Shown here piece after piece: positions 24,001 through 30,000 of a stretch of DNA of 35,787 nt. Each line of letters starts with the position of its first letter. Position 1 is the stretch's first letter. The stretch comes from a virus, in UHGV virus genome UHGV-1329092. One strand, 5' to 3'. The position numbers were made by a program.

Positions 24001-27000
24001 GTGTAGGGTATAAGCCATTATCAAAGCCACTCTGTAGGGAATGGCTTTTGTAATAACTACTGTTCGCTTAGCTTCTGCTTCAGCAAGTAACCTTCGAGCA
24101 TCCAGATTTTGTTTACAGCATTTTGCCGGGCAATCTTCCGACCAATTTCTGCATCAAAATTTTCCGGACTTGCACAGGCACTCTCTCCGGTGACGGTGAA
24201 GCCATTCTTCAGCACCAGTGCGCAGAAAGTGAGCAACTTCAATGGTGATAAATCACGATCGCCTTCTTCTGGTTTTTCCCTGCCACAATATTCGTTGCTG
24301 GAAATGGCACCATTTCGTCCATCATAAGCAGTAAAGTAATGCTCGCTTTTAATCACGTCTTCGATGTGCTGCGGAGTGATTCGCGGTGCCGTTTTGCCTT
24401 TCTCAACGATTTCTTTTTCGATTTGCTGGTCGTTCATAATTATGACCCTGTAGAGTAGTTGCTTGATTAGGATGTCTTTCCATCAGTCCGCCACCACAAA
24501 GAATCTTTTTTGCCATAAGGCAGGAGGTTCATCTTTCAGTGGCTGCCAGTGTTATTTCCCCACTTTCTGGCTTGGGTTGTTTCGCGGTGCTGCCGTAATG
24601 CAAAAACTGGATTAACCTGCGAAATCACACCATTCCGGGCAAATACATTTGCACTTCATTTGCCGCTCTCTCACGTGCAACATGAAGCAATCTTTTTCGC
24701 CCACCAACGCCCCACTTAGCCATTTGGCTTGCGCACTGGCTTATCGCTTTGGTTTCAGTATTGATGATGTGATCGATTCTATTCAGACGTGACATTGCGC
24801 CAACGCCTAGACGGACAACCGTTTTGAAAACTTCATAAACTTCGATTTCAAATTCCGGCTTAATCCATGCTGCATATCTGATTGCCAGAAGTTCAACACC
24901 CCACACACCTGGTTCTGCACCACCTTTGATTATTTTAAGTGGTTGAATTTGTTCCAAAGTGCTTTTTTGCACTTTGGCCTCCAGTGCTTTTATGAAGCGT
25001 TTTATCTGCGCGCTACGCAAAAACTGGCTTGGGCGCTGTTGCTCTGTAGCCTCTCCATTTGCAACTGCTGCTGCATGGAGATCGTTTAAGTTGTAGCGTC
25101 CATCCTCATCAACACGAACGGACACACCATTGACAATAACTGTTGGGTACTTCATCAGTGATCACCTTTTAGTGATGAACCTTGTCACACAGGATTCCGG
25201 CCCACAGAAAGGCACCGATAACCAAACCGGCATCCTCAAGGGTCATCCTGAAAGGCTCTGTGTTCATAAGTCGCGCGTGTGAAGCGCGTTTGTTGCAGAT
25301 ATAAAAAAGCCCAGCTTTTACATACCCGGATTGTGGGGATGTAAATCACGGTTTCATTATCAAGCCCACCCGCAGATGAGCTTTGTAATGGTTACTTCGC
25401 TTTTGCTTCCGCTCGCTTACGCCGGCGCTCTTCTTTCCTCTCGGCTTTTGCCATGTCCATGAATGCCTGCATGATCGAGTTCCGCATCATGTAGCTGACA
25501 AAGTGATGGTTGACACAGCCGTTGAGGCGCAGCTGCTCGCCAAACTCATCCACCGAGGCCAATGCTTCCATCATGCCCTTCTCGCCTTTCATGAACTCTG
25601 AGAAGTCGCGCCCCGCTCTGGAGGCGCATTCAATGACACGATCACTCATCCCGGAAGCCCGGGGATCGTAATCTGCAGCTGGTTAGCCAGGGAGTTAATC
25701 TCAGCGACCAACACTGGCTTCGTATAGCGCCATGCTGCCAGCCCTTGTCCGCAGAAGCTCGCCATGTCTTTCTTCTGGTCAAACTCATGACATTTCATGT
25801 TGAGCTGCGCACTTAAGCTGTTGCGATGCTGAAGTTCTCCGGTGAAGTAGTCATCGAGGACTTTATAGGCCGCGTACTTGAACCCGGGGTTTAACCAAGC
25901 CGCATAATCGTAAGCAACAAACTTCCCGCCATATGTTCCACCGTGTACACCGCGCTCAGTAAAAACCACAGATTCGTGGTTTTTCTCCAGCTCGGCTAAG
26001 AACTCTTTGGTCTGCTTGTTTCGCAGGTAGTGGTAAGGCGATTCAGATTCACTTTTACCACTGGCTTTCCACATATCAGTGAGGCAGATCATGCCATCTT
26101 CACCGATACGAATTGGTTGATTGAAGAGGGTTAATGATTTCATAGCGTGTACCTACTCTTTGAAATGAACCTTTGCCGCACAGGAAACCAGCCCACCGAG
26201 GCTCGCCAGCACTAACTGGTATCCTCAAAGGCCCATTCCAAAGGGGCAGGTTCGGTGTAAAAAACATGCGTTGCGGTACGCATTTATTGCAAAAAGCCCC
26301 GCATCGCGAGGCTCATTCTATTATTCGGGTGCTCATGATCAGGCCGCCGCATACAGCAACTTCATTTGCCCCTTAACGGGGAACGCAGCCATGCAGCGGG
26401 CTTCGAAGTCCTTCTGGTCAATGCTGCAACTGGCAATGTTGGTAACGGCGATCAGTTGCTGCTCGACCTTCTCCAGTGCATCAGGCTTAAGATGTTGGTG
26501 AATCTTCTCCTTGCTGTCCCCGGCGGCTTGTTTTGCTGCCTGATAGACATAATCGGGAAGTGCGACACCGTACACCCATCGAGCGGTGATCTGACCGAAC
26601 AGCGCCGGGCAACCGCCAACATGACCAAAGTAAGGAAGGCCGGACATTTTCGACAGCGCCTGGTAGAATGGGTCTTTAAAGCGCTTCTCCCAGGACGTTG
26701 GTTGCTGGCACACCATCAGGCCGACAATCTGATCTTCGGTGAGCTGGAAGTTTTTACTCAGCAGAAGATTTTTAATGTGTCGGTCACAGGCGCGGGCGAA
26801 TTTTACTGACAACCAGCGGGCGAATTCCACCGCCAACTCCGGATGAAGCCAGGTCCCGCCGTTTCGCCCTTTTTCCACTCTGACTAAAAGGGGAGAAAAA
26901 TCCTCTTTTACGCCAGAGCTAGCAATTCCAAGCTCCTCAGCCAGTTCGGCGATATAAATTTTTGTCGCCTCAGTCTTTAGCCAGTCCTTTGGAAGCTTGC

Positions 27001-30000
27001 CGTGATGCTTTGCAGCAACTGTGGCATTGAACCAGCAATCTGCTGTAAAAGGGAATGAGCGGTCATCGTAATCCATAGGGATGATATTAGACATATCGGT
27101 AATTACCTTTTAGTGATGAACCTTGTCTCACAGGAATCCGGCCCACAGAAAGGCACCGATAACCAGCCGGTATCCTCAAGGGTCATCCTGAAAGGTTCTG
27201 TGTGGTAATATGCGCGTGAGATGCGCGTTTACTGCGGACATAAAAAAGCCCCGCATCGCGAGGCTCATTAAATGGACTTTGTGATTTGCAAAAAAATTAT
27301 TTCAGGCATTGCGTCCTGATGTATTCCTGCAGGTAGTTAACCTGCGCGGTTATCCTGTCGATTCCACTTCGGAGACGGTAATAATTGAGTTCAGCATCTG
27401 CTGTAAGTCTTGGGCTTTCTCCATCGCCCATGCTGCTGGCTCCGGTCGTTGACTTTGCACAGGTGGCGGCGACTTGCAGGCGCTTACGCCCAGCAGAAAC
27501 ATCAGCACGGAGACTTTCGATAGTCGCGTTAGCATCAGCAAGCTCCTTTGTATATCTGGCATCGAGTTCTGCTACATCACGTTGACGCTTCTGCATGTCA
27601 GCAATTGTGGATGCGGCCTTATCGCGCTGCTCTTTGTAGGTAACGGCGTTATCGCGGTAATGATTAACAGCCCACGACAGACAGACGATGATGCAGATAA
27701 CCAGAGCGGAGATAATCGCGGTTACTCTGCTCATTGTTGCCCCCACAAACAGACTTCACGCTCAATCTCACGACGAGTCATCAGGCCTTTCCATTGCTTA
27801 CCGCCAGCGTATGTCCAGCGACGTAGCTGGTCACATGCGCCTTTGATATCGCCCTGGTTTATTTTGCGAAGAAGCGTCGATGTTCTGAAATTGCCAGCAC
27901 CCACGTTGTAGACGAACGAGTAAAGAGCGCCGCGCGTTGTTTCCGGTATATCGACTTTGATGTACGGGTTAATTTGTCTGGCGACCGTGGCAAGGTCTTT
28001 ATTCAGGAGGGCTTTGCATTCTGCTTCGGTATACGTTTTACCGGGAATGATGTCTTTTCCTGTATGCCCGTAACATACAGTCCATACACCAACTATGTCT
28101 TTGTAAGGATTGTGTCTCACACCTTCCAGACCATCGTTACCACTTGGGCCAGTGATTAACACAGATGCTATGGCAATAGCCCCGCCACTTATCGCCGCTA
28201 TTACGCTATTTCGTAGTGCCGATGACATTGCCATTCAATCTGTCCTCGCGCTCTTTGCGCTTGTAGTACCAGTTGATGCCAAATGTGCCGACAGTACAAA
28301 GAATACCAATGATGACAGCCCAGTCATTCAGGGAGAGAATGCCACCCATCGCAGTCAGTCCTCCGAAGCTGTAACTGAACAATTCTCTGATTTTGTTCAT
28401 ACGGTACATGCTCTACACATTCATTGAGTGGATTTGCTCTATTTAATTAGGAATAAGGTCGATTTCTGATAGAACAAATCCAGGCTACTGTGTTTAGTAA
28501 TCAGATTTGTTCGTGACCGATATGCACGGGCAAAACGGCAGGAGGTTGTTAGCGCGACCTCCTGCCACCCGCTTTCACGAAGCCAGCCATTGAGCTGGTT
28601 TTCTTTTATGCAAAGCACACCGCACCGTAGCCACAGCGGATAAGGTGATTATTTTGGTCTGTCTGGTATTTGGTTTGATGTGCTTTCAGAAAGTCCGTGC
28701 TTAAAACGCAAAAAGCCCCGAGCTATTAACTCAGGGCTTTATTTAACGAGTGCATTTATCCATCTTTGATGTCAAATTTACCCAACTTTATTCAATAAGT
28801 CAATATCATGCCGTTAATATGTTGCCATCCGTGGCAATCATGCTGCTAGCGTGTGACCGCATTCAAAATGTTGTCTGCGATTGACTCTTCCTTGTGGCAT
28901 TGCACCACCAGAGCGTCATACAGCGGCTTAACAGTGCGTGACCAGGTGGGTTGGGTAAGGTTTGGGATTAGCATCGTTACAGCGCGATATGCGGCGCTTG
29001 CTGGCATTCTTGAATAGCCGACACCTTTGCATCTTCCGCACTCTTTCTCAACAACTCTCCCCCACTGCTCCGTTTTGGCTATATCAACCGCACGGCCTGT
29101 ACCGTGGCAATCTCTGCATCTTGCGCCCGGCGTCGCGGCACTACGGCAATAATCCGCATAAGCGAATGTTGCGAGCACTTGCAGTACCTTTACCTTAGTA
29201 TTTCCTTCAAGCTTTGCAACGCCACGGTATTCCCCCGATACCTTGTGTGCAAATTGCATCAGATAGTTGATAGCCTTTTGTTTGTCGTTCTGGCTGAGTT
29301 CATGCTTACCGCAGAATGCAGCCATTCCGAATCCGGCTTGTGATTGCGCCATCCCCATAGCAGCCATCACATCAGTACCGGAAAGAGAGTCAGAAGCCGT
29401 AGCCCGTGGTGAGTCGCTCATCATCGGGCTTTTTGGCGAATGAAATTTAGCTACGCTTTCGAGTCTCATCGTCTTCCCCTCTTGCCCTGTTTGACCATCA
29501 GGACGCCGTTAACTATTACGTGACGCTCGCCTTTGCTGTCTCGGTTGTACTTGAGCACTGTTCCTCTTGCGCAGGAAAGCATCCTCGCCACTTCGGTCTG
29601 ATTGCCTCGTGTCTGGATAAGAAGCTCTGGTATCGTTTGAATTGTGGCGTTCATACGTTCTCCAGTTCGGTGATTTTTATTCCAAGCCTTCCGCCTGGTA
29701 CTTTCACACCACGAATTACGCGAATGTCATCGAATTGCTCGTCGTCTTCCGCAAATCCGGCGTGGATAAGGGAGTCGAGTAAACCTTTCAGGATGTTGTC
29801 GAGGTCGCGGCGGCGGGAGTCTGGAACGTCTGCGATGACTTTGATACGGAGTCGTGATTTGGTGAAAATGTCTAACTTGAGTTGGCGAATGATTTGCTGA
29901 ACGTCTTTTCGGTATTTCTGGCCTTTATCGCTGATGTAGTATTGGCTTCCCCGTCTTCTCCAGTAGGTATTCAGCGACGGCGGGTATGGAAGCACAAACT

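Follow-up and report, generated by a model that had tools for sequence, protein, structure and literature searches.

The 35,787-nucleotide (nt) DNA of the virus genome UHGV-1329092, here called the window, carries three KilA-N genes (K1, K2 and K3) between its Rz and terminase genes, and each of them is preceded by a non-coding cassette (C1, C2 and C3, respectively). This arrangement raises the question of what is conserved in these cassettes and how the conserved element acts on the gene behind it. The original prediction, made from the sequence, was that the three units are autonomous morons, which have been duplicated or acquired serially and may share a cis-regulatory RNA. The results described below indicate that the conserved cassette is a structured RNA, namely a two-state leader that sequesters the Shine-Dalgarno (SD) sequence. 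This leader represents a new and well-supported structured RNA family of a known general kind with an unusual architecture, and was known before only as an unexplained RNA-seq species of phage P22. The region as a whole probably, though by no means certainly, consists of three independently acquired units of a leader and an antirepressor-like gene in a Q-dependent late operon, in which the leader serves as a cis-acting translational gate.

Pfam confirms the three KilA-N genes of 251, 165 and 176 amino acids (aa) and their different C-terminal domains. Their open reading frames (ORFs) all exceed the curated cut-off of the KilA-N profile (PF04383; 23.8 bits), with scores of 64.6 bits for K1, 57.6 bits for K2 and 64.8 bits for K3. 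The pairwise identities of the three proteins are 20-24%, and those of the DNA in the first 300 nt of the genes are 51-53%. When the cassettes are compared from the U-run of the terminator to the start codon, C1 and C3 are 84.9% identical, C1 and C2 65.4%, and C2 and C3 61.5%, in agreement with the original prediction that C2 is the more diverged copy. A cassette is composed of an intrinsic terminator, a small hairpin (P0) and a ~110-nt switch that forms two folds, and the leader of ~150 nt is located upstream of each KilA-N gene. A covariance model locates exactly three leader copies, C1, C2 and C3, in the window. At least five sequence types of the leader (A-E) are distinguished; C1 and C3 belong to type A, C2 and the leaders of P22 and ES18 belong to type B, and types C, D and E comprise the rest. 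The short ORFs of the cassettes encode 32 aa in C3 and 30 aa in another frame in C1, and stop after three codons in C2. Because these ORFs lie in different frames, protein coding is not the conserved feature, as had been proposed; a conserved leader peptide is ruled out by the differing frames and lengths of these ORFs and by the early stop in C2. The covariance-model scores of the sense and antisense strands are 125 and 18.6 bits for C1 and 110 and 15.2 bits for C3, respectively. This strand specificity, together with the many G-U pairs in the leader structure, indicates that the element is RNA, not DNA. The originally proposed shared cis-regulatory RNA is thereby supported.

Two folds of the switch are recognized. 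Fold L is a long imperfect hairpin of ~33 base pairs (bp) with conserved internal loops, in which the anti-SD sequence (A)CCUUU pairs with the SD sequence AAAGG(U). The minimum free energy (MFE) structures of C1, C2 and C3 are all this long hairpin with a paired SD sequence. Fold N is a three-way junction of the helices P1 (a:a'), P2 and P3 (c:c'), in which the anti-SD arm is tied up and the SD sequence is predicted to be single-stranded. When the transcript is cut before the 3' arm, folding prediction gives the three-way junction for every leader type. Segment a (CACAGAA), located just 5' of the hairpin, is complementary to segment a' (UUCUGUG) in the apical loop, and this pairing covaries, as seen in the variants CUCAGAA/UUCUGAG, CCAAAGA/UCUUUGG, CGAGAG/CUCUCG, CCCGAG/CUCGGG, CCAAGAA/UUCUUGG and CACCG/CGGUG. 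In every leader type, segment c of the 5' arm can pair either with c' in the loop or with c'' in the 3' arm, indicating that the two folds compete for it. The long hairpin excludes P1 and P3, since their helices cross and c is used by both folds. The stems named in the original prediction, ccacacagaa/uucugugg (P1) and aggauaccggc/gccggauucc (the upper part of the long hairpin), are both real and both covary, but they belong to mutually exclusive folds and not to one structure. A single pseudoknotted fold with P1 and the long hairpin is likewise rejected, because segment a abuts the base of a hairpin of ~33 rungs, a' lies in its apical loop, and c would have to pair twice.

Both folds are supported by covariation. 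In the realignment with model R2 (61 distinct sequences), 95.7% of the cells of Fold L are paired and 23 of its 28 pairs are changed on both sides. None of 500 shuffles is as good as this, and slid controls give 34-52%. The anti-SD:SD helix is paired to 92.7% across 64 sequences. For Fold N, model R1 gives 96.8% pairing of P1, of which one position is AU in 34, CG in 18, UA in 7 and GC in 2 sequences, and all five pairs of P3 covary. The P0 stem is paired to 99.6%, with changes on both sides in all four of its pairs. A plain MAFFT alignment of type A, which is not fitted to any structure, also contains a P1 pair that is AU in 8, UA in 7 and CG in 6 sequences and unpaired in none. RNAalifold, when applied to the raw MAFFT alignment, recovers P0 and part of one stem and no more, because insertions and deletions between leader types shift the register; covariance models are therefore needed. 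Apart from the anti-SD sequence, the sequences of the junction and loops differ among types A-E, as sampled by searches that are biased by their patterns, and only the pairing is conserved. Covariation that supports both exclusive folds indicates that both are under selection and that the leader is a two-state switch. Fold L is more stable than Fold N by 6-17 kcal/mol, and the barrier of the direct path from Fold N to Fold L is estimated to be ~20 kcal/mol. The leader is not an RNA thermometer according to prediction, since the SD helix of C1 and C3 is not expected to melt between 25 and 50°C; the predicted mean probability that their SD sequence is unpaired is 0.02-0.07 at 25°C and no more than 0.07-0.11 at 50°C.

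These results bear on the possibility that the cassette is a DNA-level element, either a module boundary that promotes recombination or a protein-bound operator or palindrome. Mosaic joints at or near the cassette, homology that extends into the first six codons (MKYPTV) of unrelated genes, a leader with P0 of type D and a body of type A (L047), and the location of one joint of the array within a terminator may be explained by such an element. It is nevertheless extremely improbable, because compensatory changes keep the pairing, and not the sequence, in more than 30 pairs, because the G-U pairs and the score (125 versus 18.6 bits) are strand-specific, and because the joints of the array are microhomology or illegitimate joints and not crossovers within the leader.

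A third contact connects P0 with the switch. The 3' arm of the long hairpin contains a bulge (K) of 5-7 nt that matches the P0 loop by complementarity, and 5-6 bp can be formed between them. The loop/K pairs are UCUCAC/GUGAGA in C1, UCACAC/GUGUGA in C3 and CCGCA/UGCGG in C2, P22 and ES18, and UCGCAC/GUGCGA, CGCCC/GGGCG, CGCUC/GAGCG, CGUAC/GUGCG and CCCAC/GUGGG in other leaders. When counted in columns that are left unpaired by model R3, this kissing contact is paired to 96.9%, as compared with 82.2 ± 1.1% in shuffles, none of 500 of which is as good. Its central pair is GC in 35, UA in 18, AU in 7 and CG in 2 sequences and unpaired in one. Because the same central variants recur within different leader types, they have arisen more than once. 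Thus, P0 and K form a previously unnoticed kissing contact that is supported by covariation. At least eight variants of this code exist, and C1, C2 and C3 carry three different ones.

The variable code, which resembles a specificity code, the three codes in the window, and the existence of a stable leader fragment in P22-infected cells (P22F, described below) would also fit a leader, or a piece of it such as P22F or P0, that acts in trans as a small RNA like c4 or IsrK. The kissing code would then provide phage-specific control of antirepressors among co-resident phages. The IsrK-orf45-anrP system of Gifsy-1 controls an antirepressor-like gene via terminator read-through and alternative mRNA structures, and c4 and IsrK do so by pairing of a loop with its target (PMC4825925). 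The leader resembles c4 (of P1 and P7) and IsrK in several respects: an antirepressor-like gene of a temperate phage is controlled at the RNA level, the loop of an upstream hairpin can pair with a downstream target and the two vary in a compensatory, phage-specific manner, the mRNA has two alternative structures, one of which is translationally inactive, and the target mRNA arises by read-through of an intrinsic terminator. It differs from them, however, in that the c4/IsrK target is the ribosome-binding site of a coupled upstream ORF and is reached in trans by a separate short RNA, whereas K is located ~20 nt upstream of the SD sequence, no conserved upstream ORF is present, and both partners reside in one leader. 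An action in trans is quite unlikely, because P0 and K are always ~90 nt apart on one transcript, so that pairing in cis will dominate, K does not lie on the SD sequence, P22F does not contain P0, and the two leaders of one tandem pair (L129) have one and the same code. In addition, the Rfam models isrK (RF01394), C4 (RF01695) and c4-a1b1 (RF03163) give no match up to E = 10 in positions 24400-27500 of the window, and leader model R3 gives no match in Gifsy-1, where Rfam does find isrK, C4, c4-a1b1 and isrJ. Nor is isrK matched at a Salmonella and an Edwardsiella locus at which the leader follows Q. Because the models do not cross-match in either direction, homology to IsrK/c4 is rejected, and the Gifsy-1 system is an analogue, not a relative, of the leader. 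Rfam places the C4 antisense RNA and its a1b1 target on the isrK-orf45 region of Gifsy-1 (L178, 34131-34329), suggesting that the IsrK system itself is of the c4 antisense type.

Transcription of the leader is indicated by P22. This phage carries a type B leader, as C2 of the window, upstream of rha (orf201). An 89-nt small non-coding RNA (sncRNA), P22F, was reported in 2026 in P22-infected Salmonella and in vesicles as a species with "no known function", for which an analogy to IsrK was suggested (PMC13397905). The published P22F sequence is the long hairpin, with its 5' end inside the 5' arm and its 3' end 6 nt before the AUG codon (PMC13397905). It follows from this identity that the leader is transcribed on its sense strand and that its hairpin part accumulates in vivo. 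The P22F paper, which is the sole match of a literature search by sequence, describes an RNA-seq and RT-PCR species, without structure, alternative folds, kissing contact, distribution or a link to SD sequestration. The start codon of P22 rha in RefSeq is located within the leader (NC_002371, 3076 versus ~3146), and the true start is probably the AUG codon that follows the leader SD sequence. ORFs annotated by PGAP as "Rha family transcriptional regulator" in E. coli also extend into the non-coding leader. Reference annotations thus seem to contain rha-type genes with mis-called start codons.

Accumulation of a discrete 89-nt fragment in P22 infection may mean that the long hairpin is mainly an element of RNA processing or stability, with a site for RNase III or RNase E as in the intercistronic sites of T7, and that its influence on translation is a side effect. 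An imperfect hairpin of ~33 bp with conserved internal loops, and the arrangement in which the terminator and P0 flank an A/U-rich spacer, would suit this role. We consider it unlikely, because it leaves unexplained the covariation of P1, c:c' and P0:K and the presence of the anti-SD:SD pairing at the base of the hairpin in every leader type, and because the ends of P22F are not those of a staggered 2-nt cut by RNase III.

The claim that the units are autonomous morons depends on the signals at their ends. The intrinsic terminator (GAGCCTCGCGATGCGGGGC plus U-run) heads C1 and C2, in which 27 nt are 100% identical (repeat D6), as predicted. C3 departs from the prediction in that it retains the 3' arm and U-run alone (GGGCTTTTTT), and no terminator is called there, because a recombination joint cuts through it. 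Of 64 distinct leaders, 59 have a terminator-like hairpin with a U-run, of diverse stem sequence, at a distance of 8-50 nt upstream of P0, and in this set the terminator accompanies the unit on its 5' side. K1 is followed by the C2 terminator and the K2-orf85 unit by the truncated remnant, and K3 is followed by no terminator on its strand before the next gene. A consensus scan, which activator-dependent promoters would escape, detects no sigma-70-like promoter on the minus strand of 25156-25391, 26144-26338 and 27095-27296; the entire region contains 7 such sites, as compared with 7.8 expected by chance, and none of them is within a cassette. Inspection of the A/T-rich linker after P0 reveals no consistent -10 element across leader types. 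The units occupy optional positions in the late operon, relatives carry one unit or a different one, and terminators separate the units, as might be expected if they were three morons with their own promoters and terminators that are independent of the late operon, for example in a lysogen. This explanation is very doubtful for the reasons given above, namely the lack of sigma-70-like sites in the cassettes, the position of the terminator 5' of the unit, its absence after K3 and its truncation in C3, and also because any promoter or start site would overlap P0 and segment a, whose constraint is that of transcribed RNA. Lambdoid morons, as reportedly described by Juhala et al. in 2000, are optional genes that are inserted between conserved late genes, vary among relatives and have an intrinsic terminator. 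The units of the window share their optional placement in the late operon, but they have no detectable promoter of their own, their terminator is located upstream of the gene, and they carry a conserved leader for translational control that is not part of the moron definition.

The features described above are compatible with the following working of the leader as a cis-acting translational gate. The terminator would block transcription that is not antiterminated, so that the genes would be read only by Q-modified polymerase from pR'. On the nascent RNA, the 5' domain would fold first into Fold N, which may be clamped by the kissing contact once K emerges, and the SD sequence would be free for translation. 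Rearrangement to the more stable Fold L would then sequester the SD sequence, turn translation off and leave a nuclease-resistant hairpin RNA. The outcome would be that a very strongly transcribed operon yields a small and limited amount of a regulator that is potentially harmful. The conversion from Fold N to Fold L may be driven by time, a chaperone, RNase III, an IHF (integration host factor)-dependent factor or another signal.

Several points weigh against this working. The effect on translation and the order of folding are inferred, the former from structure alone. P2 is weakly supported by covariation, with changes that are mostly one-sided and to G-U. Related sequences contribute to the covariation counts, and two alignments are fitted to the structures tested, although the result for the kissing contact and that designated A9 are not affected by this. 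The anti-SD sequence of Fold N lies in the junction and could still pair with the SD sequence according to the model. The kissing contact is sterically possible in Fold N and Fold L alike. The ends of P22F are derived from read coverage and do not fit a clean double-strand cut. Finally, a barrier of ~20 kcal/mol implies very slow spontaneous refolding, so that a helper or trigger may be needed, which favours control by a trans factor.

It is possible, though we put this forward with reserve, that the state of the switch is set by such a factor, be it a protein of the host or the phage (Hfq, an IHF-dependent factor, or RNase III, which binds in the case of lambda cIII), the encoded regulator, or a small molecule by which the three-way junction and the kissing contact are stabilized. 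The maintenance of both exclusive folds and the high barrier between them are consistent with this, and a three-way junction clamped by a pseudoknot-like kissing contact resembles aptamer architectures. According to a passage in PMC4936722, which cites Henthorn & Friedman (1995), rha of P22 and phi80 is harmful to lytic growth if IHF is missing and is regulated by IHF, and rha of P22 is one of the leader-bearing genes. The loop and junction sequences, however, vary with leader type, so that neither a small-molecule pocket shared by all leaders nor a protein site of defined sequence is likely; control of the gene by its own product is made less likely by the unrelated DNA-binding families to which the downstream proteins belong; and no IHF consensus is visible by eye in the P22-type leader.

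Two known systems are instructive for the preferred gate. Translation of lambda cIII, as reportedly described by Altuvia et al. in 1989, is set by two mRNA conformations that exclude each other, with the initiation region occluded in one of them, and this switch is said to be small, to overlap the start codon and to be shifted by temperature and RNase III binding. The leader resembles it in that a regulatory gene of a lambdoid phage has two mutually exclusive mRNA folds, with an effect that is predicted for the leader, but it differs in that it is ~150 nt long, lies entirely upstream of the AUG codon, contains a three-way junction and a kissing contact, and has no predicted temperature response. 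In the leader of the MS2 maturation gene, the van Duin laboratory is said to have found that the SD sequence is locked at equilibrium by long-distance pairing and to have demonstrated delayed folding experimentally. By analogy, a kinetically trapped early fold would let ribosomes load on the nascent RNA and give a small fixed dose; the leader has no sequence or structural homology to that of MS2, and delayed folding is presumed for it.

The leader is not specific to KilA-N genes. Pattern scans detect it in ~120 viral contigs and ~40 true genome loci, the latter spanning Enterobacterales (Escherichia, Salmonella, Enterobacter, Citrobacter, Raoultella, Pantoea, Erwinia, Serratia, Yersinia, Edwardsiella, Providencia, Arsenophonus and others). 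The cassette is present in 389 phage records by BLAST; of 5426 complete E. coli genomes, 937 have the type A leader, in as many as nine copies. The genes downstream of 46 distinct leaders encode KilA-N (15), Rha (14), P22_AR_N (3), ANT (3), Bro-N (2), AntA (1), T5orf172/MUG113 (2), HNH (2) and TerB (2) proteins, nine of them with an ORF11CD3 C-terminal domain. The genes upstream of the leaders encode Rz and other spanins, endolysins, Q and tail proteins; in Stx phage phi296, the unit is located between the endolysin and Rz genes. The variety of the genes on both sides indicates that the leader is a portable module. Nowhere in the window does Rfam yield a match at gathering score, and its matches up to E = 10 in 24400-27500 (asX2, GlsR20 and others) are chance-like. 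Tentatively, the leader may represent a new class of phage riboregulator, portable and self-insulated, that senses a signal of the infected cell (for example a metabolite, a host factor like IHF or RNase III, or the state of the polymerase that transcribes the unit) and licenses translation of the gene behind it, with the P0 loop and K as a programmable code that prevents interference between tandem or co-resident copies.

Antirepressor-like proteins (KilA-N, Rha, Ant and Bro-N) are among the commonest and least understood accessory gene products of temperate phages, and they can induce prophages, kill hosts and block phage growth. The presence of one RNA module before many of their genes suggests a common logic of expression. 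This module is found in P22, in Stx phages and in about one sixth of complete E. coli genomes, and adds a candidate RNA family in phages that are easy to manipulate. It also provides a concrete object for the 30-year-old observation on IHF and rha of P22 and phi80, and for the function of sncRNA P22F. Its portability and variable kissing code could make it useful as a compact translational gate in synthetic constructs.

Several leaders outside the window deserve mention. A divergent type E leader precedes TerB-domain genes instead of antirepressor-like ones (L134, L140, L155, L157, L162, L166 and L167), and another one precedes a truncated remnant of 16 aa (L005, 2110-2252). The leader of L047 (2508-2656) is a recombinant, in which P0 and segment a are of type D and the body is of type A, with one mismatch each in the kissing contact and P1; it precedes a truncated Ant gene of 132 aa and may be a copy in decay. 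Unrelated KilA-N (K3 at 25155, and L017) and Rha-type (L028 and L168) proteins begin with the same six codons, MKYPTV, indicating that homology of the leader, and probably recombination as well, extends a few codons into the ORF. Five contigs (L134, L139, L158, L161 and L163) that are assigned to Kocuria sabuli, Cellvibrionaceae, Bacillota, Xanthomonas pisi and Collinsella contain enterobacterial prophage sequence, apparently near-identical to leaders of E. coli phages, and probably represent contamination or mis-binning.

The origin of the array is indicated by its counterparts elsewhere. The K1 unit (27253..26296), the K2-orf85 unit (26317..25342) and the K3 unit (from 25315 onward) each have single-copy counterparts of 95-99% identity in other phages. 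In the window, the orf85-like partner gene of K1 in other phages is replaced by C2, and the K1/C2 joint falls where the 5' end of the orf85-like gene (GAATGCGCCTCCAGAGCGGGGC) and the terminator (GAATGAGCCTCGCGATGCGGGGC) share a microhomology; the C3 terminator is cut by the second joint. These results indicate that the array is a stack of units from three lineages, which have been joined by two illegitimate or microhomology events. Of the two routes originally considered, serial acquisition is thus retained, and duplication in situ is ruled out by the junction analysis and by the 95-99% identical units in different phages. The genes are optional, since relatives have at this position either one unit or a different one. 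The triple arrangement is found in no phage record and in no complete E. coli genome, none of which covers at least 80% of the three-gene region. Two leaders are present at one locus elsewhere (L046/L089, L129, L130, L159 and L162). At L046/L089, a leader with Ant is located between the endolysin and Rz genes and a second leader with Rha follows Rz, and at L130 a KilA-N pseudogene of 27 aa is followed by another leader.

K1-type genes of other phages (L010, L050 and L070) are also followed by an orf85-like gene, suggesting that the usual unit consists of the leader, a regulator and a small partner gene. The K1 partner has been lost in the window. Membership of the region in a defence system is not supported; PADLOC gives just weak partial matches of ~30 residues to the candidate family PDC-S22. 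The positions of all features are summarized in Table 1.

Table 1. Positions of the cassette elements, the KilA-N region genes and the neighbouring late-operon features in the window
Feature	Position	Strand	Remarks
C1 intrinsic terminator (GAGCCUCGCGAUGCGGGGC + U6)	27242..27266	minus	Directly after Rz; 9 pairs, 6 GC and U-run in scan
C1 hairpin P0 (GCGC-AUCUCAC-GCGC)	27212..27226	minus	Loop UCUCAC (27216-27221) kisses bulge K
C1 two-state switch	27105..27202	minus	Long hairpin as MFE structure; three-way junction in truncated transcript; covariation of both folds
C1 switch, 5' elements	P1 5' strand 27196-27202; anti-SD 27191-27196; c 27165-27171	minus	
C1 switch, 3' elements	c' 27154-27159; P1 3' strand 27144-27150; c'' 27138-27143; SD AAAGGU 27105-27110	minus	
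C1 bulge K (GUGAGA)	27126..27131	minus	In 3' arm; complementary to P0 loop
C2 intrinsic terminator	26291..26314	minus	Also K1/C2 recombination joint; 27-nt core 26291-26317 identical to C1
C2 hairpin P0 (AUGCGU-ACCGCA-ACGCAU)	26266..26283	minus	Loop CCGCA
C2 two-state switch	26151..26257	minus	Type B as P22/ES18; P1 CACCG/CGGUG; K UGCGG 26176-26180; SD region GUAGGU 26151-26156
C3 terminator remnant (AAAAGCUGGGCUUUUUU)	25303..25319	minus	5' arm lost at orf85-unit/C3 joint; breakpoint mapped against L083 and K3-type phages
C3 hairpin P0 (CGCGC-UUCACAC-GCGCG)	25272..25288	minus	Loop UCACAC
C3 two-state switch	25161..25262	minus	P1 CACAGAG/UUCUGUG; K GUGUGA 25185-25190; SD AAAGGUGAU 25161-25169
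K1, 251 aa, KilA-N + P63C	26339..27094	minus	Pfam E = 8.7e-18 and 2.2e-11; PHROG 1136/129
K2, 165 aa, KilA-N + ORF11CD3	25646..26143	minus	Pfam; PHROG 129
K3, 176 aa, KilA-N only	24625..25155	minus	Pfam E = 7.3e-18; PHROG 129
orf85, small gene	25392..25649	minus	Usual partner of such units; PHROG 875, unknown function; start overlaps K2 stop (AUGA)
Q	29469..28846	minus	
pR'-like promoter	28803-28775	minus	
tR'-like terminator	28740-28712	minus	
Rz	27746..27297	minus	Just upstream of C1 terminator
gp49/Sf6-gp66-like gene, then DUF2560	Between K3 and terminase genes	minus	
Sf6-type small terminase	23512..23084	minus	Large terminase next in operon

The phage of the window is temperate and P22-like (Lederbergvirus-type), and its closest record is Klebsiella phage phiKp_30 (83% coverage, 96.5% identity). 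Its late operon on the minus strand has the order Q, a pR'-like promoter, a tR'-like terminator, the holin, endolysin and Rz genes, the KilA-N region, the gp49-like gene, DUF2560 and the terminase genes. The spacer between tR' and the holin gene of P22 (NC_002371, 1450-1564; 28592-28704 on the minus strand of the window), which corresponds to the published sncRNA "P22E", also forms a long hairpin; hairpin model R2 scores 15 bits on this spacer in P22 and 7.5 bits in the window, and neither score is significant. The Rfam family Proteo-phage-1 matches 24541-24612 weakly and below threshold (17.3 bits, E = 8.3). The spacer between K3 and the gp49-like gene (24403-24612, minus strand) is homologous to the published P22 sncRNA "P22G" and contains a small orf25-like ORF (24516..24403, minus strand; MAKKILCGGGLMERH).

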